Below, piece after piece: positions 5,709 through 50,878 of a stretch of DNA of 64,000 nt. This DNA is from a virus, in the IMG/VR virus record IMGVR_UViG_3300018080_008436, positions 58,998 through 122,997 of that record. One strand, 5' to 3'. Position 1 is the stretch's first letter. The number at the start of each line of letters is the position of its first letter. A model generated the notes under the pieces. The model searched no databases and was not told the origin of the DNA. It saw only the letters and a list, made by a program, of their open reading frames with translations. The position numbers were made by a program, and so were the translations under genes.

Positions 5709-6215
5709 TCACCATGTCTCCTTTACATCCTTATAGAACACTTTGATGGATTCGATTATTGATTGGAAGAAGATATACATCTTTTCCTTGAACGGCATTG
5801 ACTTAACATGATCTTCAACAGTTCCACTTCCTTCAGGAAGAGCAGAAGGTATTGTTCCTGAAACTTCTGTTGCCTCATCTAACATCTTTCTGTTTAACTC
5901 AGAAGCTTTCTTCAGAACTTTTTTAGGAACTTCAATGTAGAACTGGTGATAAATATTTGCATAAGTAAATCTACTCGAACTGTTTTGATACTTACAATCA
6001 TATCCAGCCTTTCGGATTTCCCTAACAGCTAAGTCTGCAACTTCTTTATTATTTATTTTACTCGATTCGAAATACACAATCAGTTGATTCATGTTGCCTT
6101 CAACGATACCAGCGTTAATATCGTGGGCGAGTTTTTCCAGAACCTGTTGTAGATTCTTTTCATCTTTCTTTGTGATTTCATCGGGACTGGGGCACTTTTT
6201 GATTTTTACAGCCAT
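5709..6215 (-). CDS. hypothetical protein
   Basis: 168-aa ORF. Confidence 0.35.
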   Translation of the reverse strand: MAVKIKKCPSPDEITKKDEKNLQQVLEKLAHDINAGIVEGNMNQLIVYFESSKINNKEVADLAVREIRKAGYDCKYQNSSSRFTYANIYHQFYIEVPKKVLKKASELNRKMLDEATEVSGTIPSALPEGSGTVEDHVKSMPFKEKMYIFFQSIIESIKVFYKDVKETW

Positions 6216-12868: not shown

Positions 12869-13669
12869 CTAGAACCTCACTAAACTCTTCAATTGCATCA
12901 GATCATCAAATTTCACATTGATACTGATGGAGAAAAGTCTTTTAAGAAGTCCTTCTTTAAAACGCACCGTTGCAATCTTGGGTTTGGGATTGGCAACGTG
13001 ATGATCTATGATCTGATCAGGATTCTTGAAATCGTCAACCAAACCTTTTTTCATTGCCTGCTTCCCAGAAAAGACCTTTGCGCTAACGATCTCTTCTTTA
13101 TTTTTCTCCATCTTTTTATTTGAACGTGCATTATACACCATTTCAACAAATTCTTCGTGACAATCTTCTAACAAAGCCTGGACAAGCATTTCATCTTTTG
13201 GCTCCAACGGTTTGAACGGACTAACAAACCCTTTGTTCTCACCAGCAGTGAACTCTCGGTATTCAATTTTATGATTGTCGATAAAGCGATCAAAGCCAAA
13301 ATTACTCATAATAACTCCAATGCTTCCAATAAGAGAAGAACGATGCGCATAGATCTTATCGCAAGCAGAAGCAATCATATATGCCCCTGAAGCGCAGACA
13401 TCACGACAATGGGCGACAATAGTACAATTAAGATCCTCTTTCAATTTGAGGATGGAATCATGAATCATTGAAGAACCAACAGGAGATCCACCACCTGAAT
13501 TGATATCAAGAATAATGAGCTTGAGGGCCGATTTATCAATTGATTTGAAGGTTCTGGCAAACTTCTCAGGATTGATCCCTTCTGCGGTCTTCTTGATTTC
13601 ACTTGCAGAAATAAATCCGTTTAACGGAACGATGACGACTTCTGGGGCTTCAGCTTTGAACATATCCAC
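12869..13669 (-). CDS. S49-family (SppA-like) serine peptidase
   Basis: LDINSGGGS and VCASGAYMIASACDKIYA are typical of the signal-peptide-peptidase / ClpP-fold S49 family. Confidence 0.7.
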   Translation of the reverse strand: MDMFKAEAPEVVIVPLNGFISASEIKKTAEGINPEKFARTFKSIDKSALKLIILDINSGGGSPVGSSMIHDSILKLKEDLNCTIVAHCRDVCASGAYMIASACDKIYAHRSSLIGSIGVIMSNFGFDRFIDNHKIEYREFTAGENKGFVSPFKPLEPKDEMLVQALLEDCHEEFVEMVYNARSNKKMEKNKEEIVSAKVFSGKQAMKKGLVDDFKNPDQIIDHHVANPKPKIATVRFKEGLLKRLFSISINVKFDDLMQLKSLVRF

Positions 13670-14465
13670 GCTCCTTCTTAATACTGTTTATAAATACTCT
13701 CATCTTGCGAAGTGATGCTTTCTCTATCTGCCTTATCCTTTCTCTTGTTAAACCATGCTCTACACTTAACTGCTCTAAAGTAGACTTCTTATCACTCATG
13801 AAACGTTTCTCAATGATTTTTCTCTCTCGATCATTTAACCTATCAAGTGCTTCATAAGCAATCTTCTTCATCTCTTTGTCGAAGACTTTCTTCCTTGCTT
13901 CCTCTTCAACAAAGATCGTTTCATACAAATCAATACTCGGATCTTGTGGCGCATCAAGAGATCGCATATTGTTAACAGGTTTGAATTGAGCGCGAAGAAG
14001 CTTATCTAAGCACCCTTCCTCATTAAGCATCGCCTCTTTATTGCGCTGTCTTCTCCTAATCTCATTATATGGAAGTCTCACAGTACGGGATGACTTGTCC
14101 ATGAATCCCATCACAGCGAACTTGACTGCTGTATTGAGGTAGCTCTGGAACTGAGTCTTCCCTTCGATATCGTACTTGATAATACACCTTAACACTGCCA
14201 GATAACATTCGTTCAGACAATCCATAAAAGATGAATTAGTGCTGTCAAGATGTTTTCTAACCAAGAGTACAACGAGCCTCAGATGTGAAAGAATAATTTT
14301 ATCCCTTGCTTCTAGAGCTTCGGGAGTCCAGGTCTTCTTATCTTTGTCATATCCTTTTTGCGCAATCACAACAAGTCTTCTGACTTCATCTTTATGAAGA
14401 GGATCACACTCTGATCGTTTGATATCTCTGTAATAAATATTGTCTAAGTTTACAGGTGTTGACAT
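13650..14465 (-). CDS. sigma-70 family RNA polymerase sigma factor
   Basis: Region 2 (LRLVVLLVRKH...YLNTAVKFAV) and region 4 HTH (LEQLSVEHGLTRERIRQIEKASLRKMR) are both present. Confidence 0.75.
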   Translation of the reverse strand: MSTPVNLDNIYYRDIKRSECDPLHKDEVRRLVVIAQKGYDKDKKTWTPEALEARDKIILSHLRLVVLLVRKHLDSTNSSFMDCLNECYLAVLRCIIKYDIEGKTQFQSYLNTAVKFAVMGFMDKSSRTVRLPYNEIRRRQRNKEAMLNEEGCLDKLLRAQFKPVNNMRSLDAPQDPSIDLYETIFVEEEARKKVFDKEMKKIAYEALDRLNDRERKIIEKRFMSDKKSTLEQLSVEHGLTRERIRQIEKASLRKMRVFINSIKKERGYVQS

Positions 14466-14473
14466 AGTTTCAC

Positions 14474-15322
14474 CTAGCTTCTGTCCTCGCCCTTCTCTCT
14501 TTGAATGAATCGTTTCATTTTTGCAAGGGCATCTCTTTCAATCTGTCTCACTCGTTCGCCAGACATATTGATTTCGTTTGCAATTCCTCTCAGAGTGTTG
14601 TCAACGTCTTCTTCTTTATTAAGAAACCGTCTCTCGATGATAAGCCTCTCTTTATCTTTAAGATGGCTCATGGCCTCAATAGCTATCTCTCGCATCTCAT
14701 GATCAAAAAGGATACGAGATGGATCTATCGGCATTGGTATGTCTCTAAAAGGCGAATTATGCATCTTAGAGCCATCATCGAAATCAAAGTCAATTGACCG
14801 AACATGACTGACAGGGTCGAAGTCTCCTTTTATTAATCTATCTAACGCATTAGGCGAACCGTAAATGTCATCTTCCACTTGTTGTCTTCGCATTGACTCA
14901 GCGATAGGAAGCTTTACCGAAGTCCCATGCTCTCGTATAAATCTCCAAACATGACGACGAATTGCAACCTGGGCATAAGTTGTAAAGTGAGTTGATGCAT
15001 TCACATCATATCTTGCAATACATTTTAATATCGCATAATGACATTCATTGATGCAGTCAAGGAAAAGAGGGTGCGGACTGCTGATGACCTTGTGAATGAT
15101 ATAAGGCACCAATCTGATGTTCGCTTTAACAACTTTGTTCTTAGCCTCGACTGACTCTTGCGTTTCCCATTTTTTAGTTTCAGGGTTGTAACCCGACTGA
15201 GCAACTTTGACTAGCTCTTTGATCTCTTCATTGCTGATCGGGTCATATTCTGGTTTCTGAATTTCCTTAAAGTACTGAGCTTGAGCACCTGACGATATAA
15301 CAATCCCGTCTGCGTTCTTCAA
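14474..15322 (-). CDS. sigma-70 family RNA polymerase sigma factor (paralogue)
   Basis: Region 2 (IRLVPYIIHKV...YAQVAIRRHV) and region 4 (LRGIANEINMSGERVRQIERDALAKMKR) are present; it lies in tandem with the previous sigma gene. Confidence 0.75.
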   Translation of the reverse strand: MKNADGIVISSGAQAQYFKEIQKPEYDPISNEEIKELVKVAQSGYNPETKKWETQESVEAKNKVVKANIRLVPYIIHKVISSPHPLFLDCINECHYAILKCIARYDVNASTHFTTYAQVAIRRHVWRFIREHGTSVKLPIAESMRRQQVEDDIYGSPNALDRLIKGDFDPVSHVRSIDFDFDDGSKMHNSPFRDIPMPIDPSRILFDHEMREIAIEAMSHLKDKERLIIERRFLNKEEDVDNTLRGIANEINMSGERVRQIERDALAKMKRFIQREKGEDRS

Positions 15323-15370
15323 ATTACACTTCTCCTGCCATTCTATTGTCTCTTCCCCAAACCCCTCTGT

Positions 15371-15763
15371 TTAATACAGCGGGAGATTTCCAGTGATTTC
15401 CTTTATTTGGTCAAAGTCTGCTGGCCCAATTGAAATTCCAACCCAGACTTTGATAGATTTCTTTAATGCCTCTGATGGAACCAAGTCTTCCCACCGACAA
15501 ACAGTAAGTCCTGACTTGACTGCATCATCATAAATATCTTGAAGTTCTTCTTTGGTGTTAACAGCTAGAATAGAAATGTATGGTTTACTCATCCATTCCT
15601 GTTCTTCTTCTGAAAATGGTCTCCCCGCCAGGATGCGAGATCGCATCCATTGGTCTGAAAGATGCGCGACCTGAGCCGCAAGCAATCCTTCAGGGAGTTC
15701 GAACCCTTTTCTCACTACACATGTTAATCTTGTATTAGCCATTACTCGCTCTCCTATGTTCAT
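15371..15763 (-). CDS. peptidyl-tRNA hydrolase, PTH2 family
   Basis: RLTCVVRKGFELPEGLLAAQVAHLS matches the PTH2 K-x-V-x-V-R...G-K-xAAQ-x-H motif. Confidence 0.6.
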   Translation of the reverse strand: MNIGERVMANTRLTCVVRKGFELPEGLLAAQVAHLSDQWMRSRILAGRPFSEEEQEWMSKPYISILAVNTKEELQDIYDDAVKSGLTVCRWEDLVPSEALKKSIKVWVGISIGPADFDQIKEITGNLPLY

Positions 15764-15969
15764 TAATCACATCAATAATCTTCATGCCCAAGTCATGAGT
15801 AGATGTAGATCTTGCCACGTAATCCTGTAGGTTATTGATATGAGGATCTACGCTGATAACACCTTTAACCATTAAAATAGCATTGATGATATGTTCACAA
15901 TCATCGTCCCTGTAATCCTTATCAAGAACTACCGTTAACGTTCTGATACGATCACTCATTTTTTCTCCT

Positions 15970-16719
15970 TTAGAAAGGTTCTACATCTTCAATGAAAATG
16001 CGTTGTTCCCAACTTTGTATACTTGACTGCCTTACTCTACCCAACTCAACCCTGGATGCGAAAAGGATCATGAGCGCAATAAAAGGCATAAACAGTTGAT
16101 TAAATGCAATACCTGCTATGAACATAATGATACAACATACCACTGCAAGGTAGAATGTCACATTCATAGATAAGACGATATTCTTGGTAAAGAACATCAT
16201 GATCGATCTGAAGATTCTTCCCCCATCCATCGGCCAAGCAGGTATTAAGTTGAAGACAGCAAATATCAAATTAATCACAACAAGATATGATGGGAACTTG
16301 TATCCAGGGCCTACTACTAAACTAACTATAAAGAAAATCACCGCTAACAAAAGTGAAGTCATAGGTCCAGCCAATGCCACCCAGAACTCTTGTTTGGCAT
16401 TTTTTCTGTCTATAGGGATAGAAGCGGCTCCACCAATTGCATACAGAACAATCTTGTCAGTGTAAATTCTGAACTTCCTGGCCATAAAACAATGACCAAG
16501 TTCATGTATCAAAACACAAAACATGGCTATGGCATAAACAGCCGCATATTCCCACCCATTCAAGATAAGGAAGATAAGGAAAGCGATGGTGCATGAGAAA
16601 TGAATAGTTACAGGTATCCCAGACCACTTCCCTAAAGAGAATGAAAGTTTGTCAATCATTGTTATGCCGTTGGAATGCAATTGTAATCTCCAGTTTATAT
16701 TTGTACTTGAGTCTAACAT
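15970..16719 (-). CDS. M50-family site-2 protease (intramembrane zinc metalloprotease)
   Basis: HELGH lies inside a transmembrane helix (VLIHELGHCFMA) and a downstream PMDGGRIF (LDG) motif is present, on a polytopic membrane topology. Confidence 0.8.
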   Translation of the reverse strand: MLDSSTNINWRLQLHSNGITMIDKLSFSLGKWSGIPVTIHFSCTIAFLIFLILNGWEYAAVYAIAMFCVLIHELGHCFMARKFRIYTDKIVLYAIGGAASIPIDRKNAKQEFWVALAGPMTSLLLAVIFFIVSLVVGPGYKFPSYLVVINLIFAVFNLIPAWPMDGGRIFRSIMMFFTKNIVLSMNVTFYLAVVCCIIMFIAGIAFNQLFMPFIALMILFASRVELGRVRQSSIQSWEQRIFIEDVEPF

Positions 16720-18506: not shown

Positions 18507-19199
18507 TTAGGATTTCTTAATCCCAATGAAGCCAACTTCTTCGTATCCAACAAGACCGCATTTTTTTCTGAGTGGATCATCAGCGAGTAAATATGTTCTG
18601 TCTTGTCTGATAAACTTGTGGACCTCATAACAACCAAGTTCCTCAAAAATCTTTATAAGTCTCTTGTTCTCTTTATCCAAATAATCATCTACTTGTGGAA
18701 CAAAAGGATCTTTTCTGTTGATAATTGCGTTCAATCTTGCTTTAGGAGTTAAAAGCTTATACTTGGTGAAATATTTACGAGCATCCATCTCTGGTAAACA
18801 CGCAATCTCAAAAGTGCGAGATAAGGCTCTTTTTCCAGTTGTGACTTGGATGACTTCTCCAGAGCGATTCTCCATTACATAAGTCATTTCCCTTGGATTT
18901 CTTTCAATTATCGCCAACGCACCTTGTGGAAGGTTATGAACGACAAGTTTACATCTCGGAGAACTTGAAGTCTTGGAAGAAATATATATGGAGTCACTCC
19001 AAATATGCCCAACCCCCTTTAAATCACTAAAGGTACAAGATTCTTTTATTTTATTAAATAACTTTGAAGTACAAACAGTGGCAGGTATAAGTGCTAAAAT
19101 CGACTTGATAAAGTTTTTTCTATTCATTGTTCTTTCTCTTTCTTTAATTGTATGTTGGAGCGGTATACCGAACTCGAATCGGTCCCTCAACCTTGGCAA
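18507..19199 (-). CDS. hypothetical protein with N-terminal signal/TM segment
   Basis: 230-aa ORF containing KNFIKSILALIPATVCTS. Confidence 0.35.
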   Translation of the reverse strand: MPRLRDRFEFGIPLQHTIKERERTMNRKNFIKSILALIPATVCTSKLFNKIKESCTFSDLKGVGHIWSDSIYISSKTSSSPRCKLVVHNLPQGALAIIERNPREMTYVMENRSGEVIQVTTGKRALSRTFEIACLPEMDARKYFTKYKLLTPKARLNAIINRKDPFVPQVDDYLDKENKRLIKIFEELGCYEVHKFIRQDRTYLLADDPLRKKCGLVGYEEVGFIGIKKS

Positions 19200-19309
19200 A
19201 GTTGCATGCTACCACTAACACCAATACCGCATAAAGCGCCCCTCTCCTGATTTGAGCTTCACTAGATAGGCTTAAGAGATCGGACTTGACATACGTCTAT
19301 GCCCATTCT

Positions 19310-19389
19310 TGGTGGACCAAGAGGGATTCGAACCCTCGAAAGAATGCGTCCACTATCGGCTTTAACACTCTTCCTAGCCTAATTAGCCC
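19310..19389 (-). tRNA. tRNA-like gene (anticodon not resolved)
   Basis: The minus strand has a canonical T-arm GAGGG-TTCGAAT-CCCTC, a 3' TTGGTCC-A-CCA end, and a matching 5' acceptor strand GGGCTAA. The D and anticodon arms are irregular. Confidence 0.45.
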
Positions 19390-19391
19390 AT

Positions 19392-19470
19392 TGGCGCGGA
19401 GGGTTGGATTCGAACCAACGTCTCTAGGTTCTTACGCCTAGTGCAATAACTTCCAATCCAGATCCTTTTG
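19392..19470 (-). tRNA. tRNA-like 3' portion (5' boundary uncertain)
   Basis: T-arm GTTGG-TTCGAAT-CCAAC and a 3' CCTCCGC-G-CCA end are present. The only matching 5' acceptor strand (GCGGAGG) lies ~200 nt upstream at 19587-19593. Confidence 0.35.
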
Positions 19471-19599
19471 GCCTTAAAGGTCTAGAAAGGTCGAAGATTA
19501 ATAATATTCCGCTTCGGTAAAAACGTAAGATTATCTAGAAATCTTAGTCCCCTAGCATTCAATTATCAACCTGTCCTCTATGCTACCTCCGCATAAATT

Positions 19600-19684
19600 T
19601 GGAGCGAAAGAAAGGAGTCGAACCTTTTAATCAAGAGTCTCTACGACCGATAACGAGCCTTGAAGTATTACCACATACTTTCGC
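19600..19684 (-). tRNA. tRNA-like, long (type-II-sized, 82 nt + CCA)
   Basis: Acceptor GCGAAAG/CTTTCGC, T-arm AAAGG-TTCGACT-CCTTT, and an encoded CCA. The internal arms are non-canonical. Confidence 0.45.
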
Positions 19685-19815
19685 TAAAGTGAGGATTTTA
19701 ATAGCCGAGAGTACCTCACAATTCTCTCCGCAGTGATTATGATTGAGACCGTCAAATCACTCTTGGCTACGCATTACTGCGCTGTCCCAAACCTATAAAT
19801 AGGTCAACCAAACGT

Positions 19816-19902
19816 TGGAGCGGGTAACAGGATTCGAACCTGCGTAAACTATTCGCCTCGAACTTGGAAGGATCGCGCTCTACCTGACTGAGCTATACCC
19901 GC
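19816..19902 (-). tRNA. tRNA (D-arm GCTC-AGTCAGGTA-GAGC; ~15-nt variable region; anticodon loop possibly CUUCCAA)
   Basis: Acceptor GCGGGTA/TACCCGC, T-arm GCAGG-TTCGAAT-CCTGT, and an encoded CCA. Confidence 0.55.
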
Positions 19903-19908
19903 AAAACC

Positions 19909-19982
19909 TGGAGCGGATAGAGGAATTCGAATCCTCGCCAAGAGGTTGGAAACCTCGTATGCTACCATTACACCATACCCGC
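19909..19982 (-). tRNA. tRNA-Gly (UCC)
   Basis: The structure GCGGGTA-TG-GTGT-AATGGTA-GCAT-A-CGAGG-TTTCCAA-CCTCT-TGGC-GAGGA-TTCGAAT-TCCTC-TATCCGC-T-CCA closely resembles T4 tRNA-Gly. Confidence 0.8.
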
Positions 19983-20224
19983 ATAAAAAGATGCCCCTAC
20001 AACCCCCGCTAAAGGGAATGAACTGTGACGAATGACATTTTCGAGCGCTACTCCAATGTCAATTTTCACGTTGCCCAGCATCACCTGTAAGCGTCTTCTC
20101 TGGATTCATTGTCCAGCGACTCATTCACCAAAATGATTCCCATTTTCGCTTTATCCAGTAGGTTCCTGGGGTGGGCTAAAACCACCGCCATAGTTCATCA
20201 TTCTTTGCAGGCGCATAAAAAGTC

Positions 20225-20300
20225 TCCCACTGGGACTTGAACCCAGAACTCGCATACATTTCCCAAGGTTGTGCTCGTTAACTCTGACGCTCAAGGTTCC
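20225..20300 (-). ncRNA. tRNA-like 3' element (T-arm CTGGG-TTCAAGT-CCCAG, no encoded CCA)
   Basis: A T-arm and 3' acceptor strand TGGGAGA are present, but the only matching 5' strand (TCTCCCA) is ~155 nt upstream (20378-20384). It may be analogous to the small stable tRNA-like RNAs of the T4 tRNA region. Confidence 0.3.
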
Positions 20301-20384
20301 TGTACGCCAGCGAATCCTCGTTCTTATATCAGCGAATCTATCTGACCAAACAAGGAACACCTATACCATTTAGCGATGGGAGAT

Positions 20385-20464
20385 TGGTGGGTTCGGCAGG
20401 ACTTACACCTGCATTACCTCTCATGGGGGAATCGAGAGGGTCTTAAAAATTAGATGACGAACCC
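20385..20464 (-). ncRNA. tRNA-like element with non-canonical T-loop and enlarged anticodon-region loop
   Basis: Acceptor pair GGGTTCG/CGAACCC and an encoded CCA, with T-arm GCAGG-TGTAAGT-CCTGC and a candidate stem CTCTC/GAGAG enclosing 11 nt. Confidence 0.35.
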
Positions 20465-20467
20465 AAA

Positions 20468-20587
20468 TGGTGGCTCAGGTAGGATTTTACCTACAATGCA
20501 TGTTGGGGGATTTCGGCCAGCTATACCTGTAACCTACACCAATCATTGCAAGGATTGGTACTTCGCGTATAGTTCCGCCACTGAGCC
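20468..20587 (-). ncRNA. tRNA-like stable RNA (~117 nt + CCA)
   Basis: Acceptor pair GGCTCAG/CTGAGCC and an encoded CCA, a T-arm-like hairpin GTAGG-TAAAAT-CCTAC, and internal hairpins (ACCAATC...GATTGGT). Confidence 0.35.
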
Positions 20588-20826
20588 ATAAAAATGTTTC
20601 TGGTAGGTTTTGCACCTACATCCTGATGAGACTCACCGTGTAGTACAGCATTACCAAAGGCACTCTGCCGCCCCATTACGACATCAAACGCGACACTTTA
20701 AGCTCACACTATCAAGAAGGAGGTCACCGCACACTGGGTCAAATAGTGACTTTCCGAGCTTGCCTGCGGGTTACCCCGCTTCAGAAACAGTAAATTGTTA
20801 AAGATCACTTTTCTCTTTCGAGAAAT

Positions 20827-20927
20827 TGGTAGCGAGAGCAGGAATCGAACCTGCGTCAACAGAGATCATGACTCTCTGTGGGAAAGCTCATTTCGTTTCG
20901 GAAAGAGCGACCAACATCCTTCTCGCA
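20827..20927 (-). ncRNA. tRNA-like with CAU anticodon loop and an extra 23-nt hairpin in the D region
   Basis: T-arm GCAGG-TTCGATT-CCTGC, 3' TCTCGCT-A-CCA end, and anticodon stem-loop CAGAGA-GUCAUGA-UCUCUG. A GCTCTTTCCGAAACGAAATGAGC hairpin is inserted, and positions 1 and 72 are T and T. Confidence 0.35.
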
Positions 20928-20928
20928 T

Positions 20929-21017
20929 TGGTAGCGGAGGCAGGACTCGAACCTGCGAGGAATTTTACTTCCTTCTGGCTTATGAGACCAGCGAGTTACC
21001 AACTACTCTACTCCGCA
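20929..21017 (-). tRNA. type-II (long-variable-arm) tRNA with CAU anticodon
   Basis: Folds cleanly as TGCGGAG-TA-GAGT-AGTTGGTA-ACTC-G-CTGGT-CTCATAA-GCCAG-[AAGGAAGTAAAATTCCTC]-GCAGG-TTCGAGT-CCTGC-CTCCGCT-A-CCA. The discriminator is A73 and positions 1 and 72 are U and U. Confidence 0.6.
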
Positions 21018-25688: not shown

Positions 25689-25943
25689 GCGTCATCCTTT
25701 GATTATTTGTGATTTCTGATCCTCTTCAACGATGCGATTCCAATACTTCATCATTATTTTATCAACTTTCATTACGTTTGATGAAACATGGATATTAACA
25801 GCCCGTATCTCATCATGAGTACCATGTTCTAAAACATAGCTGAGAAATTTAACGACTTGAGTAAGGGTTTCCTTTTCCGTTAAATCATTATTATCCATAG
25901 CATACCTCCAATATAGCTCAAAACTTGAGATTGTCAAGTCAAA

Positions 25944-28900
25944 TTAGCTTGTTTTGAAGATATTATACCAATCATGCTGATAAACGAGATCATCTTCGTC
26001 ATCTCCTGGCTGATAGCCTGGAGGACGAGGACCACCTGGATCGTCAATGACCCTTGGGACATATGTATCCTTTTGTGGAACTTTTTTAGCTTCTTCAATG
26101 TATTGGATTACTCTTTCATAAGCAATCCTTCCACTCTTAGTCTGTAGAACTCTTCCTTCGAAAAGTGCGTCAAGTTGTTTTATGATCTGAAGTTTGATTT
26201 CTGGGGATGGGGGATTCTTGCTGATGTTGTATGCTTTAAGAGCGGCCCTTCTGATTAATCGCTCATTCTTCTTCAACATAGGATATGAGTTCATGATTCT
26301 GGTTAGCTCTTTATAATCACCCCTTTCCAAAGCAGTCTCAGCGACTCCTACGGCTCTCTTAGACTCTCTTGATCTAAATTCCTCCACATGCTTCTCTGTT
26401 ACAATTGGTTTGCCGTAAAGATCTTGAATCTGTTTGATTATTGTATCATAATATGGATCACCTTTGTAGAACATACACATTGTGCTTAAGGTAACACATT
26501 TCTTATAAAATGCTGGATTTTTGGCAAGTCTTCCGCCATATAAATCATTAATACCTTTCATTTTGTCAAGAGGACTTTCTCCAGAATCAGAACCGTCTCT
26601 TATGTTGTTCCAGTTCAAGTATGTGCTTGTAGCATATGCTACAGCTTCTCCTAAAGAATCATCTGCGATTTCCTGAACCTTCTCTTTGATAAGCTTACCC
26701 CTGGTTCTCTTGTTCAGTTCCCCTATCTTTTCCCTATCACCTCTAGCAAATGCTGTCTGAGCATCTCTCTTTATACTTTGGTAAGTCTTCTCTGCAATAT
26801 CTTGGTAATATGGTTTAAGTGGAGTTCCGATCAATCTCTTGAAATCGTTGTAATACCCTTCTGTTTGATCCCAGCTAGTGTTCATGTCTGACAAAATCCT
26901 AGAAGCATGAGTAACTGAACGTTGAAGAAACCTTTCAGTATCAAAAAGATCACCTTTGAAGTTTTGGTTCAGAAGAATTAACTGATTATAGTTACTAGCA
27001 TCAAGGTGATTAATAGCTACTTCAGTAGCCTGTTGAATTGCTTGCTGATAAATTCGTTCATAATGCACCCCTCTAGAAAGTTCATTGTTTAATACCCTAT
27101 CAACCTGTTGGAAAAGATCTGGGTTATGAACCATCCATGTTGAACTCATCCTGATTACAGCTTCTTTGACTTCGTCTCTTGCACTTAACTCTGGGAATCT
27201 CTCCAAAATATCTCTAAATGCTGTTAGATCATTCTCTGCTAAATAGTTGATCACTTTATTTTCAGCAAGTCCTAGTGCTCCCTCATAAATAACATCAAAA
27301 TATTTCGGTTCGGATAACTTCTCATCAAAGAAATCATTTAAATTGTTAAAGGCCATTTGGTCTTCCACAAGCATTAATGAAGCTCTTTCAAGCATCATTT
27401 CAAATGCCTCTTCTTTGAACTCATCCAAATTCTCTTTAAGGTCAAAGTGAACTCTTATGTTATTAAATTTGTTGAAATTATTATCTTTAATTGCATCAAT
27501 ACAAGCTTCTGTAGCTACACCCTTAAATAAAGGCGCGGCCCCAGATTGATTAATGATTGCCTGAACATCATAAAGTAAAGTTTTTTGGGTGGCACTTTCT
27601 CTTTGATTCACCAGCCTCATATAAGCTTGGAAAGCTAAGTCTTGGACTTCTTTGTGTTTAACGGGGATTGATCCCATTTGGTTGTTCAATTTAGCAAAAT
27701 CAACCCTTTGTGTATTAAGGTAATCTTTTGCACCTTCTTCGATAATAGTTTCCAACTCTTTTTTAATGAGTTCGATGGATAACTGTTGTACCACTGGGTC
27801 TTTCTTTAAAAAAGAGTATCGGCCTAAATTAAACTCAACTTCATTTGGAGAAATAGATACTAATCTATCTCGACAAACTTTGTGAAATCTCGATGCTTGG
27901 ATTTCTTTGCGCATACCATCAATTTCTTTCTTGTGGTCTTTGGCTTCATTCAACGTCCATCTGACTTTCTTGACATCTTCTCTTCGTCTTGCCTCATCCT
28001 CTTCAGTCTCGCCTCTGGTTTTCCTCAAAGCTTGTTCTTGCTTTGCTGAATCTTGAATTTTTGCATTTATCTTAGCATCCATATTTTCAAGACCATTTAT
28101 ATAAGCATCTGCTTTGGCAGAATAGAACAAATTCTCAACTTTTGAAAGCTTTGTGATCTCCTTCCTATTTACCCACATTCGATTCTTTTCATTTCGAAGT
28201 GATTCAATTTTCTTCCTAACCTCTGCAACAAGTTTTTCTAAAGGTAAATTTAGTTTTATATTCGCTTTCTCTAAAGCTATCGTCAATTCAGATCTTCCGA
28301 GACCTTGCCTTACCTTCTTTTCAAAAAGTTCATCATCTATTTTAAAACCATATTGACTAAGAAGTTTTCCTTTATCTCCTTTATGCAAGTCAGCGAAGCA
28401 CTCATCCATGTTACTGACTGCTCCTTTGGAGAATTTATCAATTGTACTATTGTCTAAGTAATAGAAAGCATGCCCATTAGAAGTTATCTCTGGATCACTC
28501 ACCATATTAGTAATTTCTTCGATGTTTTTCCCAGATAGGTCTTTAACCCTTTCCTCGTCTTCACGAAGTTTTTTGAGGTTGTAGTGACCGGTCTTGTTCA
28601 TCTCAGAATTGATATGTGGATGTCTTTGACAGAGATTATATACTTTGTCAGCATACGGGACGATAGTGATATCCTTATTATTCAGCCCTCTAACTTCTTG
28701 TATTCGGCTACCGATGAACCTGATCGCCACTCTTGGGGCACCACCCTCTACATAGAACCAGAAATCTCCTTGGTAAGTATAATCTTTTGCGGTTCCAAGT
28801 CCACCTATGCACCATCCAGCACTATTAGTCAACATACTAATAATCTTGCCTCTGGCATCAGAAGTGGTTACATCCAGACCCCTAATTTGATTTCTAATAT

Positions 28901-29846
28901 CCTCTGGGTATTTTATTTTGGCACCGACATTTCTTCCACCAGGGATAACAACCCAATCATTCTTAAGCCCCTTAATATCTTCTTGAGAGACTTTATTAAG
29001 AGCATCTTCACCTTCGAGGTTCTTTTGTGTATTAAAATATGATGAAAATATTTGCTTATTACCCAGTGGCCTTTTGGAACTCTTCATCTCTTCATAGATA
29101 GGAGCAAGTTCTTCTTTCTTCGCCAAGGCTTCTTGTAAGTTTTCTTCAGCTTTTTTGATAACTACAGGTGCTTCATTTTTCTTTTTAAGTTGATTAACCT
29201 GATTGGTCAACTTAGACACTTGTTTGTTCAAGTTCTGGTAAACTGATGCTGTTTTTTCCTCCAAAACATAGATTCCACTTTCTATGTCTTCCTGCGTAAT
29301 TCCAAATTTTGCTAAGGTCTGAGTCTTAAGTCGATCACCAGCAAGTGCCTGCATATAGTTGTCAATCTTCGGAACGGACATCTCTTCATAAGATGCTTGC
29401 AAAACCTTATCTGTTGGTTCTGCGAGGGGACTGTTGGCAACAGAAACGGAAAGAATATAAAGGAAAGGATTGCTAAGTCTGTAAGTAAATTCTTTTGGTT
29501 GTTCGCCAAATAGAAGGTTCTCCCACTTAGGGATCTGCATCATGGCTTTAAGATAAACTCTTCTGTCTTGGTAAGATAACTCTTGCTTTTGAAGATCTTT
29601 GGCATCGAAGGTTAAAATCTTCTCAAAGTTAGCCTTGGATTTTTCTAAGAGTTCTTTAGCTTTTCCACTGACAATAAACTTGTCGATTTCTGCTCGTAAG
29701 CTTTTCTCATCATTGATGGCCTGCCAGTCAAGGTAGGCTCCACCTTTTCTATCTTCCAGGTTACAGATATTGATTAAGAGGGGATCAGTGGGATTTCCTG
29801 CACTTTTCAGCTTCTCTTCAACTTTTGCAATTTTAATGAATTTCAT
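25944..29846 (-). CDS. large hypothetical protein (1300 aa)
   Basis: The longest ORF in the window, with no recognisable catalytic motif and a coiled-coil segment around residues 200-250. It may be a virion or injected protein. Confidence 0.5.
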   Translation of the reverse strand: MKFIKIAKVEEKLKSAGNPTDPLLINICNLEDRKGGAYLDWQAINDEKSLRAEIDKFIVSGKAKELLEKSKANFEKILTFDAKDLQKQELSYQDRRVYLKAMMQIPKWENLLFGEQPKEFTYRLSNPFLYILSVSVANSPLAEPTDKVLQASYEEMSVPKIDNYMQALAGDRLKTQTLAKFGITQEDIESGIYVLEEKTASVYQNLNKQVSKLTNQVNQLKKKNEAPVVIKKAEENLQEALAKKEELAPIYEEMKSSKRPLGNKQIFSSYFNTQKNLEGEDALNKVSQEDIKGLKNDWVVIPGGRNVGAKIKYPEDIRNQIRGLDVTTSDARGKIISMLTNSAGWCIGGLGTAKDYTYQGDFWFYVEGGAPRVAIRFIGSRIQEVRGLNNKDITIVPYADKVYNLCQRHPHINSEMNKTGHYNLKKLREDEERVKDLSGKNIEEITNMVSDPEITSNGHAFYYLDNSTIDKFSKGAVSNMDECFADLHKGDKGKLLSQYGFKIDDELFEKKVRQGLGRSELTIALEKANIKLNLPLEKLVAEVRKKIESLRNEKNRMWVNRKEITKLSKVENLFYSAKADAYINGLENMDAKINAKIQDSAKQEQALRKTRGETEEDEARRREDVKKVRWTLNEAKDHKKEIDGMRKEIQASRFHKVCRDRLVSISPNEVEFNLGRYSFLKKDPVVQQLSIELIKKELETIIEEGAKDYLNTQRVDFAKLNNQMGSIPVKHKEVQDLAFQAYMRLVNQRESATQKTLLYDVQAIINQSGAAPLFKGVATEACIDAIKDNNFNKFNNIRVHFDLKENLDEFKEEAFEMMLERASLMLVEDQMAFNNLNDFFDEKLSEPKYFDVIYEGALGLAENKVINYLAENDLTAFRDILERFPELSARDEVKEAVIRMSSTWMVHNPDLFQQVDRVLNNELSRGVHYERIYQQAIQQATEVAINHLDASNYNQLILLNQNFKGDLFDTERFLQRSVTHASRILSDMNTSWDQTEGYYNDFKRLIGTPLKPYYQDIAEKTYQSIKRDAQTAFARGDREKIGELNKRTRGKLIKEKVQEIADDSLGEAVAYATSTYLNWNNIRDGSDSGESPLDKMKGINDLYGGRLAKNPAFYKKCVTLSTMCMFYKGDPYYDTIIKQIQDLYGKPIVTEKHVEEFRSRESKRAVGVAETALERGDYKELTRIMNSYPMLKKNERLIRRAALKAYNISKNPPSPEIKLQIIKQLDALFEGRVLQTKSGRIAYERVIQYIEEAKKVPQKDTYVPRVIDDPGGPRPPGYQPGDDEDDLVYQHDWYNIFKTS

Positions 29847-29925: not shown

Positions 29926-30369
29926 TTACCAGTCGTCTTTGCTGTCGCTCTTAGGATCGCTTTCAGGCTGTCCTACAAAGGGTTTACCCTTCTTATCGAC
30001 CTTGCAATAGGCCAAGATCTGTTCGATGTCTATGGGCTTCGCATTGGGGTTTAAAACGGGGTTCAGATCATCTGTTTTTGGATCGTAATTGCTGATCAAT
30101 GTCGCCAGCATTTGCTCCAACTCATCATCATTCAGATGAGAGCTTGCACTAGCATTGCGCATAGCCTCTATCTGTTGAGCTAAACGACTTTGAGTTGGAC
30201 AGAAAGGTGAGTTACTTTTGCAATAGACAATCGTTCCAAAAAGCATGGCGAATGGGGCGAGGACACAGACGGCAATGCAGAGATACTGAGCACATGTTTT
30301 GACCATGTCTCTAACATCTTTAGATACATCGCTTACAACTTCCCAGAATACTTTTTTATTTTCGCTCAT
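29926..30369 (-). CDS. hypothetical membrane protein
   Basis: Transmembrane helix (LCIAVCVLAPFAMLFGTIVY). Confidence 0.35.
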   Translation of the reverse strand: MSENKKVFWEVVSDVSKDVRDMVKTCAQYLCIAVCVLAPFAMLFGTIVYCKSNSPFCPTQSRLAQQIEAMRNASASSHLNDDELEQMLATLISNYDPKTDDLNPVLNPNAKPIDIEQILAYCKVDKKGKPFVGQPESDPKSDSKDDW

Positions 30370-30680
30370 TTTTTATCGTCCCAGTTATCTTCTTTGGGTT
30401 TGGAGTTTTCGACAATAGTCTTTGGTATGATTGTTTCTCTATAAATGAGATATTGACACCCATCTATTGTTACTTCAAGGATCGGTGCGGTATTTCCAGG
30501 AATCCGATAAATGGTTCTTCCCACTCTCTTCTCTGGAGTACTGGCGAGGTCTTTGTCAGCACCCAAACTCTTGGAATTTTCTTTTTGGACAAGAGAATAT
30601 ATCCCTGCACATCCAATCAATAAAATCAAAAGCGCAAGACATACCTCAATTATCGAGAAAAGATTGGATTTCATCACCAA
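30366..30680 (-). CDS. type IV pilin-like (N-terminal prepilin-type helix) protein
   Basis: MKSNLFSIIEVCLALLILLIGCAG resembles the class III signal / N-terminal pilin helix F-[ST]-LIE-[VL]-x-x-A-L-x-I-L. Confidence 0.45.
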   Translation of the reverse strand: MVMKSNLFSIIEVCLALLILLIGCAGIYSLVQKENSKSLGADKDLASTPEKRVGRTIYRIPGNTAPILEVTIDGCQYLIYRETIIPKTIVENSKPKEDNWDDKK

Positions 30681-31231
30681 CCCTCATTTGTTACGGATTC
30701 CTTGGGCATAGGAAAAGAGATTGCATTATTCGCCTTGAGTGCCTCAAACTGTTCTTTAGAAAGCTCTTGAGGATTTCCAGTAACGCGATCCCAGGTATCG
30801 AAATGAAGCTCTTCAATCAAATCTTTCTCTCGAAGGATGTTGAACTGTTGCCTTGAAAGCTTCTGAGGGTTCCCAGTAAAGACAGACCATTGTTGATACA
30901 AATCACCTGATTGAACTTTAACGGTCTTGCCGATATTCCTCATCTTGGTTTTGATGATAGGGATAGTGGTTTCGCTGAATTTCTTCTTACCTTCGCATAA
31001 GTCCATCAACTCAGGATGAAAAGCTTCGGTCTCATAAACTCCACAGAACTCTTCGATTGAAAGAAGTTTCACATCTTCTTTCAAATCAAGTTGTGTTCTT
31101 GCATGGGAGCAAAAGTTGATATGCCTTGACAAACGAATAGCTCTGGCAAGTGCTGGGACCAGCATCCCTACCAGAATCAAAAGGATCGCAGTAACAACGA
31201 GAAGTTCTGGCAATGTGAATCTTTGTTTCAT
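30674..31231 (-). CDS. type IV pilin/pseudopilin-like protein
   Basis: KQRFTLPELLVVTAILLILVGMLVPAL is pilin-like, but R replaces the usual G before F. Confidence 0.45.
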   Translation of the reverse strand: MKQRFTLPELLVVTAILLILVGMLVPALARAIRLSRHINFCSHARTQLDLKEDVKLLSIEEFCGVYETEAFHPELMDLCEGKKKFSETTIPIIKTKMRNIGKTVKVQSGDLYQQWSVFTGNPQKLSRQQFNILREKDLIEELHFDTWDRVTGNPQELSKEQFEALKANNAISFPMPKESVTNEGW

Positions 31232-31294
31232 GATATCCTCCTAAAGAAAATCCCTGCCCCCGAAGAGGCAGGGATTCAGATGCTTCAACGGGGT

Positions 31295-32677
31295 TTACTT
31301 TTGGGGAGTCGCAACAGGAGTCGCTTCTGGAGTATCGCCGTAGTTGTTTTTGGAGTTGTAGGTTGGGATCTTGTTAATTGGAGTCTTGTCCAACAAGCCC
31401 ATCCCTTCCAACAGCTTCAGATTGATCAGATTGGTTGTCATACCGCCCTGTGATCCGCCTGTAGTACCTCCATTACCGCCGATGGTAACGCCTGGAACTT
31501 TGATATTGGAAAGATGTTCTGCAATTCCGATATCACGTTCTTTGGCAATCTCAGCAAGAATCTTTTCCTGCTCGGTGATAGCGCCAGCTTTCTGAATCTT
31601 TTCCTCTTCAGCCGCCGCCAACTCACGAATTGCTTCAGCATCAAGCTTGGCCGCTTCCAGTTTTAACTGAGCGACATCCACTTCCTGCTGTGCTTCGATC
31701 TTGGCCTTGAGTGCAACCTGCTCAGCTTCCAGAGCCGCTTCTTTCGCAACGGCGACCTTCTGCTGTGCTTCGATCTCAGCCATTTCCTTTTCCTTCTCAG
31801 CCTTAATGACAGCTTCGGCCTTCTCGACATTGGCTTTAGCCTCCATCTCAGCTTTCTCACGCAATCCCTTCTCTTCGACCATCAGGCGCTGTTGAACTTC
31901 CTGTACACGCTCAGCCTTGGACTGCTCTGCCAACAGTGAAGACTTTTTCTTCGCCGCAAACAGTTCGCGAGTCTGTGGATCATACTCAACTCCTGTAATG
32001 GAGAACTGAGTGATCGTAATGCCATACTGCTCCAACGGAGATTCTTTGGCGATCAATGGTACGCCGTTGTCATCCTTGACAATATTGGTGACGTAAACGG
32101 TAATTGCCTTACCGCTTTCATCTGTTTCGTCAACCTGCTGAACCGCTTCCTTACGCATCTGGTAAAGACCATTGTCCAACTGCTCTCGAACAGTCTGGTC
32201 AAACTCCGTCTTACGGGCCGACTGATGTTCGGAGGACTGCATCATTGGGGCGGTATTCTTCAAACAGTTAATAAGGTGGGAACGGCATGCCGACTTAATG
32301 TTATCGGGATTACCGCTGAACTGTTTGTTGAATTCGATACGTTTGGCTTCATCCGTAGGCAACTCAATACGGGCGTAACATGATACGTCTGCCTGACCAC
32401 CATCGTTGAAGGTAATACGAATCGACTCATCTTTGACTCCACCTTCTTCAACTGACTGGGAGAAGTAGTAGTCTTCGAACTTGTTCCATTCCCAGGTAGT
32501 GGCGAAGAAGTTCCAGTAATAACCGCCTCGGTCGATCACGCTCAGATCACCGCCAATCGTCTGCTTGACGACGAACTTGGTGTTTTCGTTGTAACCAAAC
32601 AACTGGGTTAAAATTGTGAGTGAGATGACGGCGACGATTCCTACGAATGCGAGTTTTACTTTTGTTGCGTTTGTCAT
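31295..32677 (-). CDS. SPFH (band-7)/flotillin-like membrane protein
   Basis: N-terminal transmembrane helix, an SPFH core (ITGVEYDPQTRELFAAKK...), then a long Ala/Glu/Lys coiled coil typical of flotillin/YqiK. Confidence 0.7.
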   Translation of the reverse strand: MTNATKVKLAFVGIVAVISLTILTQLFGYNENTKFVVKQTIGGDLSVIDRGGYYWNFFATTWEWNKFEDYYFSQSVEEGGVKDESIRITFNDGGQADVSCYARIELPTDEAKRIEFNKQFSGNPDNIKSACRSHLINCLKNTAPMMQSSEHQSARKTEFDQTVREQLDNGLYQMRKEAVQQVDETDESGKAITVYVTNIVKDDNGVPLIAKESPLEQYGITITQFSITGVEYDPQTRELFAAKKKSSLLAEQSKAERVQEVQQRLMVEEKGLREKAEMEAKANVEKAEAVIKAEKEKEMAEIEAQQKVAVAKEAALEAEQVALKAKIEAQQEVDVAQLKLEAAKLDAEAIRELAAAEEEKIQKAGAITEQEKILAEIAKERDIGIAEHLSNIKVPGVTIGGNGGTTGGSQGGMTTNLINLKLLEGMGLLDKTPINKIPTYNSKNNYGDTPEATPVATPQK

Positions 32678-32717
32678 TGGTGCTTTCCTTTGACTTGTTT
32701 TTGTTTACAACAGTGAG

Positions 32718-33059
32718 TTACTTTTCTTCAACAGCCTCTTCGGCTTCGTCCAACTCATTCTCAATAGCCGCTTTTGTGGCTACTTCTCTTGAGAAGGACT
32801 TAATCTGATCATTTTCCTCCTGTAGTTTGTTTGTTACCTTTTCGTTTTGTTCGACTCGTTCATCAAGAGCTTCAAAAGCCCTCTTTCCATCATTGCAAAG
32901 ACTCTCTGTGCTCTTCTTGGGATGAGGGGAACAGAGATCATTGGCGAATTGATCAATCGCCTCGCTTGTAAAGATCTTCTTGTAAAGAAGGGTTACAAAT
33001 GCGAGAACGAGAGATACGACTGCAAGGACTGCAATTAGCGTTACGAGTTTGACGATCAT
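32718..33059 (-). CDS. small membrane protein
   Basis: N-terminal transmembrane helix (IVKLVTLIAVLAVVSLVLAFVTLLY). Confidence 0.35.
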   Translation of the reverse strand: MIVKLVTLIAVLAVVSLVLAFVTLLYKKIFTSEAIDQFANDLCSPHPKKSTESLCNDGKRAFEALDERVEQNEKVTNKLQEENDQIKSFSREVATKAAIENELDEAEEAVEEK

Positions 33060-33138
33060 GTTTGATCTCCTGATTAATTAAATTATGAGACTAATATAGA
33101 TCGTCTTTAATGGATGTCAAGCGGTTTTATAGAAAAAT

Positions 33139-34212
33139 CTAGGCTTTATGGCCATTTTTTTCTTTAATAGGGTTGGCCTTCAAAGCTTCATAGTCAGCTT
33201 TATACATGATTTCAACGAGTTCATTGAACTTCACTTTCGGTTCCCATCCCAAAACTTTCTTTGCCTTGGAGTAATCTCCCAAAAGTAGATCCACTTCAGC
33301 AGGTCGATAATACCTTGGATCAATCTGAACTAGTGCATCTCCGCTCTTACTGAAACCAACTTCTTGCTGACCCTCGCCTTCCCATTTCAATGGCATCTCT
33401 GCCAAATCGAAAGCGATATCAACAAATTCCTTAATAGAATGTGTTTCATTTGTTGCTACGACATAATCATCTGGCTTATCCTGTTGCAACATCAACCACA
33501 TTGCTTCAACAAAATCTGGTGCATATCCCCAATCTCTTCTAGAATACATATTGCCAAGATACAAACAATCTTGCATTCCAAGCTTAATAGATGCCACGGC
33601 CCTGGTGATCTTTCTTGTAACGAAAGTTTCTCCTCTTCTAGGAGATTCATGGTTAAAAAGTATCCCGTTGCTTCCATAAATCCCATAGGACTCTCTGTAG
33701 TTCATTGTAATTGAGAACCCAAACTGTTTTGCAACACCATATGGGGATCTTGGATGAAACCTTGTCAACTCAGTTTGTGGACTCTCATAAGGAATACCGA
33801 ATAACTCTGACGAAGACGCTTGATAGAACTTACACTCAGGGCAAAAGGATCTGATCGCTTCCAGTAATCTCAAAACTCCCAATCCCGTTACATCCGCTGT
33901 GTATTCTGGCTTGTCAAATGACACCCTTACATGACTCATTGCCGCAAGGTTATAACACTCGGTTGGCCTTACCTTTTGAACGATTCTATTCAAACTGTTC
34001 GCATCTGATAAATCACCATAATGAAGATGTAAATTTACATGTCTGTCATGAGGGTCTTGATAAATGTGATCGATTCTCTCTGTGTTGAATGAACTGGATC
34101 TTCTTATGACTCCATGCACTTCATATCCCTTATTCAAAAGTAGTTCTGCTAGATATGAACCATCTTGTCCTGTTATCCCTGTTACCAGTGCGATTTTCTT
34201 TGATTTAGCCAT
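33139..34212 (-). CDS. gmd: GDP-mannose 4,6-dehydratase
   Basis: [46 protein letters not shown]...[14 protein letters not shown] is a textbook GMD signature. Confidence 0.9.
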
Positions 34213-50800: not shown

Positions 50801-50878
50801 TGGTCGGGGTGAGACGATTCGAACGTCCGACTTCTTGCTCCCAAAGCAAGCGCTCTAACCAGGCTGAGCTACACCCCG
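50801..50878 (-). tRNA. tRNA-Pro (UGG)
   Basis: The minus-strand sequence CGGGGTG-TA-GCTC-AGCCTGGTTA-GAGC-G-CTTGC-TTTGGGA-GCAAG-AAGTC-GGACG-TTCGAAT-CGTCT-CACCCCG-A-CCA forms a canonical cloverleaf. Confidence 0.85.

Follow-up and report, generated by a model that had tools for sequence, protein, structure and literature searches.

A membrane gene cluster of a huge phage with a predicted type IV pilin-class helix on a new all-helical head and a putative SPFH scaffold protein

Why should a phage encode a protein that begins like a type IV pilin, and why beside a protein of the SPFH class? The question is raised by a 64-kb stretch of phage DNA (the window, in whose positions all coordinates are given), which is identical to part of a 523,871-bp metagenomic contig. 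Five co-oriented and partly overlapping open reading frames (ORFs) at 29926-33059 on its minus strand encode, in the order of transcription, p113, an SPFH protein, pil185, p102 and p147, each with a single N-terminal hydrophobic segment. Judged by its sequence, pil185 carries a type IV pilin-class N-terminal helix, and it is the founding member in the window of what appears to be a new phage protein family. The original prediction, made from the letters of the window without database searches, is borne out as to the ORFs: all five are present at the coordinates given, on the minus strand. Independent gene calls agree on the 523,871-bp contig and on three further, shorter contigs that come from other samples, the sole difference being that the ORF of 104 residues is called from an ATG at 30674, giving 102 residues.

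The gene for pil185 (185 residues) lies at 30674..31231 on the minus strand. The leader MKQR is followed by F-T-L-P-E and by a hydrophobic helix with a proline at +22 and an LVPALARA motif. We scanned all six frames of the window for pilin-like starts, defined as [FMLIVY][TSEQ][LIV][LIVP]E with a hydrophobic run, and the pattern matched only the N termini of pil185 and p102, the products of adjacent genes. Because it is found nowhere else in the six frames, the pair is not a chance feature. Against the NCBIfam prepilin domain TIGR02532 pil185 scores 16.7 bits, marginally above the cutoff of 16.3, and against Pfam N_methyl (PF07963) it scores 15.3, below the gathering score of 21.2. The relatives P0007 and P0017 score 21.3-21.4 on TIGR02532, and PF07963 is matched at E<=0.1 by 19 of the 33 family members, the best with E = 4.8e-6.

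A word-index search with pil185 returned three relatives only. An exhaustive profile search of 1.8 billion protein representatives returned about 33 full-length cluster representatives, exclusively from metagenomic contigs of which the long ones are phage-like, and a further 149,388 proteins that match positions 1-47 only, the best of those listed scoring 56-60 bits. With so many matches to positions 1-47, the N terminus of pil185 is unquestionably homologous to a huge bacterial family. Scanning metagenomes for further pil185 loci added eight, mostly already seen, and the family is absent from the 50,697 GenBank phage records of INPHARED and from IMG/VR.

The profile of the 33 family sequences matches solved pilins in register. 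Thermus PilA (6xxd; E = 6e-10) and PilE1 (8pfb; 1e-8) stand at the head of the matches, with geopilins and then gonococcal and Pseudomonas pilins below them, and the family Phe aligns with mature residue 1 of the solved type IV pilins. The family, whose members have diverged to about 30% identity, keeps Glu+5 invariant (30/30) and Phe+1 (26/29), Thr+2 (24/29) and Pro+22 (25/30) conserved, behind leaders of 3-12 residues that are mostly rich in Lys and Arg. The AlphaFold2 model has a helix at residues 7-48, with a predicted local distance difference test score (pLDDT) above 90, which aligns to alpha-1 of 6xxd, 8pfb and geopilin. Family conservation, the model and the alignment to solved pilins together delimit residues 1-48 (31088..31231, minus strand) as the predicted equivalent of the pilin alpha-1 helix.

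Could the resemblance nevertheless be accidental, with ordinary signal anchors that happen to hold F-T/S-L/I-x-E? The marginal Pfam and TIGR02532 scores of pil185 on its own and the lack of a significant hidden Markov model (HMM) match for p102 would be in keeping with this. It is countered by the in-register match of the family profile to solved pilins at 6e-10, by the strength of the best N-terminus-only matches among 1.8 billion proteins, and by the restriction of the pattern to two sites in the window. The profile search and the solved-pilin matches refute chance for pil185; for p102, the only protein for which it could apply, we find it scarcely credible.

The head of pil185 has a different character. 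In the AlphaFold2 model, which has an overall pLDDT of 91.9, it is all-alpha with no beta-sheet, and no structural neighbor was found in a fold search. The idea that the head, too, would be pilin-like was not borne out, as the globular alpha-beta roll of pilins is absent from the model. Its core consists of two tandem repeats of the form (D)LYxxWxxFTGNPxxLSxxQFxxL at residues 110-174 (30710..30904, minus strand), the most conserved part of the all-helical head, the form for the family being (D)LYxxWxxFTGNPxxLTxxQFxxL; the repeats bear only a faint S100/EF-hand-like resemblance.

Might such a protein still be a working pseudopilin, processed and assembled by the host machine, so that at the tip of a (pseudo)pilus or within it the novel head is displayed at the envelope? 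It could then serve in altered adhesion, in masking or modification of a receptor, or in the export of phage factors. All the assembly-relevant residues are retained, the leader and the style of the residue at -1 match the proteins of the presumed host (see below), and the head is small and compact and could fit a fiber tip; its repeats, moreover, are the most conserved part of pil185, as expected of a ligand-binding domain. However, with no alpha-beta roll the all-alpha head has none of the surfaces by which the heads of pilins pack in known fibers, there is neither a minor-pilin set nor machinery genes nearby among the window ORFs scanned, and the link to the SPFH protein is left unexplained. 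We therefore consider normal assembly of pil185 into a fiber to be rather unlikely.

The second protein with a pilin-like start, p102 (30366..30674, minus strand; 104 residues from a TTG at 30680), begins MKSNL/FSIIEVCLALLILLIG, where the slash precedes residue +1, with its F...E in register with the pil185 family. Aligned to that family by hhalign, it gives 82% probability over 32 residues. Its best HMM match is PilV (E = 0.05), with none above threshold, and the search for relatives returned just one sequence, a truncated near-identical copy of p102 itself. The slot that it occupies is variable among related loci (numbered here with the prefix L), being filled by an unrelated soluble protein of 124 residues in L008-L011, by a 29-residue remnant in L007 and by nothing in L017. 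The in-register alignment, with a motif that in six frames is confined to p102 and pil185, makes a pilin-derived origin plausible; the near-identical copy, the lack of an HMM match above threshold and the variable slot lead us to reject p102 as a second bona fide pilin. Of the two type IV-pilin-like proteins proposed in the original prediction, pil185 thus stands and p102 does not, the latter being a lineage-specific ORFan that is pilin-like by motif alone. The same division applies to the outcome named there as refuting, a failure of pilin HMMs to match: pil185 is matched marginally by TIGR02532, though short of the PF07963 gathering score, and its family profile matches pilins, and p102 fails both TIGR02532 and PF07963.

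In L007 the 29-residue ORF (L007:5515-5610) follows directly on the pilin-like gene in another frame and reads MVMDDPKTEPKAKTSSVKGPLGSNGQKDW. It keeps the overlapping MVM start seen in p102 and has a p147-like end, ...GQKDW, and it has the look of a remnant left when a deletion took out the p102 and p147 genes.

We turn to the residue at -1, which is Arg in pil185 (QR/F) and Leu in p102 (NL/F), Gly being found in neither. The original prediction had drawn attention to the lack of the canonical Gly (QR/FTL). The absence is real, and it is not peculiar to pil185: Gly or Ala stands at -1 in none of 27 family members, and Lentisphaerota proteins share the trait. The best matches to the first 47 residues of pil185 are bacterial proteins of 230-250 residues beginning MKKx/, some of which have a sub-threshold match to the H-X9-DG C-terminal domain. 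Against the model for this domain, TIGR04294 (cutoff 19), the bacterial comparators P0050 and P0065 score 13-16 bits, and neither pil185 nor its relatives match it.

A genome scan, limited to one genome per species and biased as a sample, gave 80 loci (L020-L099), nearly all from Lentisphaerota, Verrucomicrobiota and Planctomycetota. Of 26 motifs in the Lentisphaerota loci, 22 have at -1 a residue other than Gly or Ala, whereas in the other phyla 57 of 59 motifs have one or the other. In the pilin-like FTLIELLVV proteins of Lentisphaerota the leader is very short, and position -1 is mostly occupied by K, R, N, S, T or the like. This pattern would imply that the peptidase of the phylum has an unusual specificity, or else that its 'pilins' go unprocessed. 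Because the missing Gly is universal in the pil185 family and common to Lentisphaerota proteins, it is better read as a trait of the lineage than as an adaptation of the phage, and on the same grounds we reject it as proof of an uncleavable mimic. The N-terminal profile of the family scores Lentisphaerota highest, the margin over Verrucomicrobiota shrinking to p = 0.07 when the leader is omitted. The -1 pattern thus points weakly to a host among the Lentisphaerota, or at least in the Planctomycetes-Verrucomicrobia-Chlamydiae (PVC) group. Together with the leader it provides a rare sequence-based clue to the host of a 524-kb uncultivated phage.

The second major component of the cluster is the SPFH protein (460 residues; 31295..32677, minus strand). 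It matches Pfam Band_7 over residues 33-257 with 33.4 bits (gathering score 23.6) and belongs to phrog_11908 (6e-60), a phage family of unknown function. The AlphaFold model, calculated from an alignment of 50 sequences (pLDDT 79), has a transmembrane (TM) helix at residues 3-26, an alpha/beta SPFH domain at 27-232, a single coiled-coil helix of 130 residues at 234-363 and a second helix at 369-391, followed by a disordered tail rich in Gly and Thr. The hydrophobic segment of the sequence, residues 4-30, corresponds to an N-terminal membrane anchor. Comparison of the model with the PDB using Foldseek gave 46 matches at E<=1e-3, all of them SPFH or vault proteins; the best is HflK/C (7vhq; 6.5e-9), and erlin, flotillin, prohibitin, stomatin, MVP and QmcA follow. 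The fold search alone succeeded, for the sequence found no match in the PDB at E<=0.01, even with a profile of 50 sequences. On the model, the protein is a predicted cage-forming scaffold.

In which direction does it face? The positive-inside charge bias, a heuristic, gives an N-in orientation in 45 of 49 homologues. Since this puts the N terminus in the cytoplasm, the SPFH domain and coiled coil are predicted to face the periplasm, as in HflK/C. The earlier description of a flotillin-like SPFH protein with a long coiled coil is correct as to SPFH identity and coiled coil, but the label of flotillin does not suit the predicted HflK/C-like orientation: a flotillin has a cytoplasm-facing SPFH domain and a hairpin or lipid anchor, and the phage protein has a single TM segment that is N-in/C-out by the heuristic. 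Its homologues fall into more than 120 close clusters, on contigs of up to 403 kb, with remoter relatives in crAss-like phages, Vibrio phages and a 462-kb uncultured phage record.

Is the association of these genes conserved? The phage contig L017 (331 kb) keeps the order p113-SPFH-pil185-p147 at identities of 25%, 51%, 33% and 32%, respectively, and the membrane cluster of the original prediction is supported, as a conserved set in a huge phage. In four of the five lineages in which the flank is visible, the pilin-like gene directly follows the SPFH gene. From these gene orders the linkage of SPFH and pil185 appears real within the clade and obligatory for neither family.

The stop codon of pil185 overlaps the start of p102 by 1 nt, and that of p102 overlaps the start of p147 by 4 nt; such overlaps are those of predicted translational coupling. 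A promoter of sigma-70 type, TTGACA-N16-TATATT, lies at 33093..33120 (minus strand), 33 nt upstream of p113, and matches 11 of the 12 consensus positions. The same sequence occurs three times in the window, at 416-443, 25910-25937 and 33093-33120, all on the coding (minus) strand, against 0.12 expected. The copy at 25910-25937 lies just past the gene for a 1300-residue ORFan (25944..29846, minus strand, from gene calls) that follows the cluster. In L009 the motif also precedes the homologous gene, and in L007 it follows the homologue of the 1300-residue gene. These promoters probably mark transcription units of the phage that depend on host RNA polymerase. As consensus promoters bracket it, the cluster looks like one such unit, and on the evidence of its promoter it is probably expressed early.

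The 1300-residue ORFan probably belongs to the transcription unit of the cluster. Close relatives have it in synteny (1298 residues in L007) and L017 does not, and because synteny fails there it is placed outside the conserved core. It has no match in Pfam, PADLOC, the PDB or the INPHARED/GenBank phages, and none of significance in PHROGs.

In L006 (7933-8018) and L007 (2877-2962) a sequence TTGATA-N18-TATATT lies upstream of a small TM gene, inside a perfect inverted repeat of 14 bp with arms AGCAATGGACTTGA...TCAAGTCCATTGCT. The repeat might serve as an operator, or as a terminator that overlaps the promoter.

The cluster is completed by small membrane proteins, and the original prediction was right that these flank the others, p113 and p147 each having a single hydrophobic segment. 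p113 (113 residues; 32718..33059, minus strand) is a predicted bitopic membrane protein, with its TM segment at about residues 5-25, within a hydrophobic stretch at 1-32, and an acidic coiled-coil tail, which the charge bias suggests to be cytoplasmic. Its homologues lie directly upstream of SPFH in L007, L009 and L017, and in L001, L019 and the crAss-like and Vibrio phages that place is taken by unrelated small TM proteins. Here, as in six further phage contexts, the gene just before that for the SPFH protein encodes a small bitopic protein. NfeD is encoded next to SPFH proteins elsewhere. p113 has no NfeD or other Pfam match, and at E<=1 there is no match to NfeD for p113, p102 or p147, so that an NfeD partner among the small TM proteins is rejected.

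The one resemblance found for p113 is to the Rz-like spanin family phrog_89, which at E = 0.06 is very weak and not significant. It bears on the possibility of lysis control, in which the small TM proteins would be holin-, antiholin- or spanin-like and restrained by the SPFH protein. A crAss-like SPFH gene flanked by TM proteins of 63 and 84 residues adjoins a peptidoglycan hydrolase, which would fit. Yet the 72 ORFs of the window that were scanned (64 + 8) include no lysozyme, amidase or transglycosylase family, and no muralytic family is among the Pfam families listed for genes within about 10 kb on either side of pil185. In addition, the sigma-70 consensus promoter suggests early rather than late expression, and the neighbors are genes of nucleotide and sugar metabolism. 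A lysis cassette is rejected, given that no muralytic-enzyme family was detected and that the promoter is of early type; of the functions suggested in the original prediction, control of lysis is the least supported, and we think it very improbable.

p147 (147 residues; 29926..30369, minus strand) is likewise a predicted bitopic membrane protein, with its TM segment at about residues 27-49. Its conserved C-terminal domain, SRLAxQ...YDPxTDxLxPxLNPxxKP, is predicted to be periplasmic and ends in Trp. There is no match to it in Pfam, NCBIfam or PHROG, and homologues are encoded at the equivalent position in L008 (150 residues) and L017 (139 residues; 32% identity, E = 2e-17). The C-terminal Trp recurs in the cluster: pil185 ends ...NEGW (30674-30685), p147 ends ...KDDW (29926-29937), and the L017 homologue of p147 (L017:7158-7577) ends ...DKRW, with 14 of 33 members of the pil185 family also ending in Trp. 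The comparison of C termini also took in the p147 homologue at L008:2534-2986, and an unrelated acidic protein of 131 residues in L107 (L107:1894-2289) ends ...DDDDDW. The Trp tails may be a shared recognition tag.

Aromatic C termini are read by periplasmic PDZ proteases, and the Trp tails of pil185 and p147 resemble those that are so recognized. This would be consistent with a cage that regulates proteolysis, where the SPFH protein encloses host FtsH, or an M50 site-2 or S49 protease of the phage encoded 15-20 kb away, and pil185, p147 and p102 are substrates or regulators, possibly feeding into the two sigma factors of the phage. HflK/C is the best structural match to the SPFH protein and has a predicted topology like it. 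One block of the window, on the minus strand, holds an S49 peptidase (12869-13669), two sigma-70 family factors (13650-14465 and 14474-15322) and an M50 site-2 protease (15970-16719). But the block is a separate unit about 16 kb from the cluster, the NfeD1b_N match of the S49 peptidase, about 18 kb away, falls short of its cutoff (24.1 against 40), the cluster proteins showed no anti-sigma domain, and the conserved pilin residues would have no explanation. We judge this arrangement improbable. For the block itself, which also holds an ORF of 130 residues (12869-16719, minus strand), the intramembrane M50 protease beside two sigma factors suggests a possible phage-run switch operated by regulated proteolysis.

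Has the pilin-class helix perhaps simply been captured from the host as a plain membrane anchor? The module would then stabilize or compartmentalize the inner membrane during a long infection, in the manner of SPFH and PspA proteins, and would have nothing to do with pili or secretion. PVC genomes contain very many copies of this N terminus, a ready source for domain capture, and the head of pil185 is unrelated to pilins. SPFH genes preceded by a small TM partner are found widely among unrelated phages devoid of a pilin-like gene. On a 212-kb phage contig (L019), a PspA/IM30 membrane-stress gene (L019:8909-9577) lies 2.5 kb downstream of an SPFH homologue with 46% identity, which hints that some huge phages may group several genes for membrane maintenance. 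Against capture as an anchor, the invariance of Glu+5 and the conservation of Phe+1, Thr+2 and Pro+22 across divergence to about 30% identity are hard to explain, and the other TM proteins of the module make do with ordinary hydrophobic anchors. A borrowed anchor seems to us unlikely, if by no means negligible.

It is these residues that point in another direction. In type IV filament subunits Glu+5, Phe+1 and Pro+22 are used to dock on the assembly platform and on the neighboring subunit, and a plain membrane anchor would not be expected to keep an invariant charged Glu buried where its TM helix begins. Because these three positions are conserved, and a plain anchor does not need them, we favor entry of pil185 into the pilin pathway; and because its head is not a pilin head, we favor interference or redirection over normal fiber building. 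The reading that we prefer, at a probability of roughly 0.4, is that pil185 interferes with or enters the type IV filament machinery of the host, and that the SPFH cage and its partners organize the site.

On this preferred reading the module would be a conserved inner-membrane set of a huge-phage clade, probably expressed early in a host that is most likely of the PVC group, with Lentisphaerota favored, and with a core comprising an SPFH cage anchored N-in, p113 as its TM/coiled-coil partner, the pseudopilin-derived pil185 and the bitopic p147. pil185 would insert in the membrane like a prepilin of the host, and its helix would engage the host's type IV filament system, of the class of type II secretion systems (T2SS) and type IV pili (T4P), or the pool of pilins. 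Its head being unfit for a normal fiber, the machine would be blocked or redirected. Pilus or secretion functions might thereby be shut down, and superinfecting phages possibly excluded. The SPFH cage, with p113 and p147, would organize or protect the patch of membrane in which the interference occurs. A more specific and distinctly speculative version, which we hold to be unlikely, makes pil185 a pilin decoy encoded by huge phages of PVC bacteria: a host-type alpha-1 helix with a non-polymerizable head, held in a periplasm-facing SPFH cage with two partners, that jams or captures the machinery.

A number of observations weigh against interference with the filament machinery. The single-sequence HMM scores of pil185 are marginal. 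In the machinery scan, no prepilin peptidase (Peptidase_A24), T2SS/T4P ATPase (T2SSE), platform protein (T2SSF) or secretin was found among the 72 window ORFs, and for want of these families there is no genomic link to type IV machinery beyond the helix itself. Each of the two main components also occurs without the other: of the distant members of the pil185 family, L014 has no SPFH neighbor and L107 has a different downstream context, and SPFH homologues lack a pilin-like neighbor in L018 and L019 (46-48% identity), in L001, and in the crAss-like and Vibrio phages. The SPFH protein and pil185 may consequently work independently. As the proteins of the presumed host also lack Gly at -1, pil185 has no feature that would set it apart from an ordinary substrate as an uncleavable protein or a poison. 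The host assignment itself is weak, for the loci sampled are biased and p is 0.07 without the leader, and topology and timing rest on simple heuristics. The gene structures, the identity of the SPFH protein, the homology of the pilin helix with its selective conservation, the non-pilin head, the synteny in divergent relatives and the promoter motif are shown; topology, host, early timing, the physical association of the four proteins and the interference step are inferred, the last of them purely so.

The surroundings of the cluster are those of a huge phage. Directly upstream, in the window and in all close relatives, is a GDP-mannose 4,6-dehydratase gene (33139-34212, minus strand), and a second gene of the NAD-dependent sugar epimerase/dehydratase family is found at 6206-7117 (minus strand). 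The window has five tRNA genes (19156-21017 and 50801-50878), three of them for tRNA-Gly, and auxiliary genes typical of huge phages: RNA ligase, ThyX, PARP, NAD synthase, peptide deformylase and sigma factors. PADLOC gave no match for the five cluster proteins or the 1300-residue neighbor, and identity as an anti-phage defense system is rejected on that basis.

What is new here is a phage-encoded pilin-class helix fused to a new head; the phage SPFH family was already catalogued, and is not understood. Phage SPFH scaffolds, which have no known role, are frequent in huge and crAss-like phages and in some Vibrio phages, and the pil185 cluster supplies candidate clients or partners for them. pil185 also gives access to the pilin-like families of Planctomycetota, Verrucomicrobiota and Lentisphaerota, which are very large and whose functions are obscure. 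Should it engage the pilus or secretion machinery of the host, it would be without precedent among phage proteins in having a pilin assembly helix as its basis, and would give a virus a new means of controlling a major envelope machine. If it were a decoy in the specific sense set out above, it would represent host takeover or superinfection exclusion unlike any known, and would imply a Lentisphaerota pilin-processing pathway with no need for the canonical Gly at -1. If the helix were merely a borrowed anchor, the cluster would be a conserved but ordinary set of phage membrane proteins.

How does the cluster compare with known systems? Like type IV pilins and T2SS pseudopilins, pil185 has a short basic leader, Phe+1, Thr+2, an invariant Glu+5 and Pro+22, and a hydrophobic alpha-1N of about 20 residues that runs into an amphipathic helix, with a profile match in register. 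Unlike type IV pilins, no member of its family has Gly at -1, its head is all-alpha with two TGNP repeats instead of an alpha-beta roll, and it is encoded by a phage, with no peptidase, ATPase, platform or secretin gene alongside among the window ORFs scanned. The H-X9-DG/DUF1559 pseudopilin-like paralogues of PVC bacteria are the best-scoring relatives of its first 47 residues, including an LLPALxxAR motif, and the Lentisphaerota versions share the very short Lys/Arg leader and the lack of Gly or Ala at -1. They differ in the C-terminal domain, which in these proteins carries the H-X9-DG motif and in pil185 is replaced by a head of its own. We found nothing relevant in the literature on phage-encoded pseudopilins, pilins in huge phages, DUF1559 pilins or Lentisphaerae prepilins.

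The SPFH protein resembles HflK/C and the SPFH cage proteins in its N-terminal anchor, SPFH domain, long coiled coil, second helix and predicted N-in/C-out topology, and its long coiled coil is also like those of flotillin and erlin. In contrast to HflK/C it is very distant in sequence, the product of a single gene instead of a K/C pair, and phage-encoded. The gene for a small membrane partner immediately upstream recalls the NfeD-SPFH operons, from which the phage differs in that its partner, p113, has no homology to NfeD.

Type IV pili are a common target of phages, as the known inhibitors show (PMC11436027). Phage superinfection-exclusion proteins that disable them include Tip/Gp05 of D3112 and Aqs1 of DMS3, which act on PilB, and a Pf4 protein that acts on PilC/PilJ (PMC11436027). 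No sequence relation of the cluster proteins to known T4P-disabling phage proteins was detected in PHROGs. If the mechanism that we favor is true, the phage cluster would share with these inhibitors the target system and the biological logic. They are, however, small proteins of the cytoplasm or inner membrane that bind the ATPase or platform, and not one is based on a pilin helix. Since the known inhibitors act on PilB or PilC and are not pilin-like (PMC11436027), an inhibitor built on a pilin would be new.

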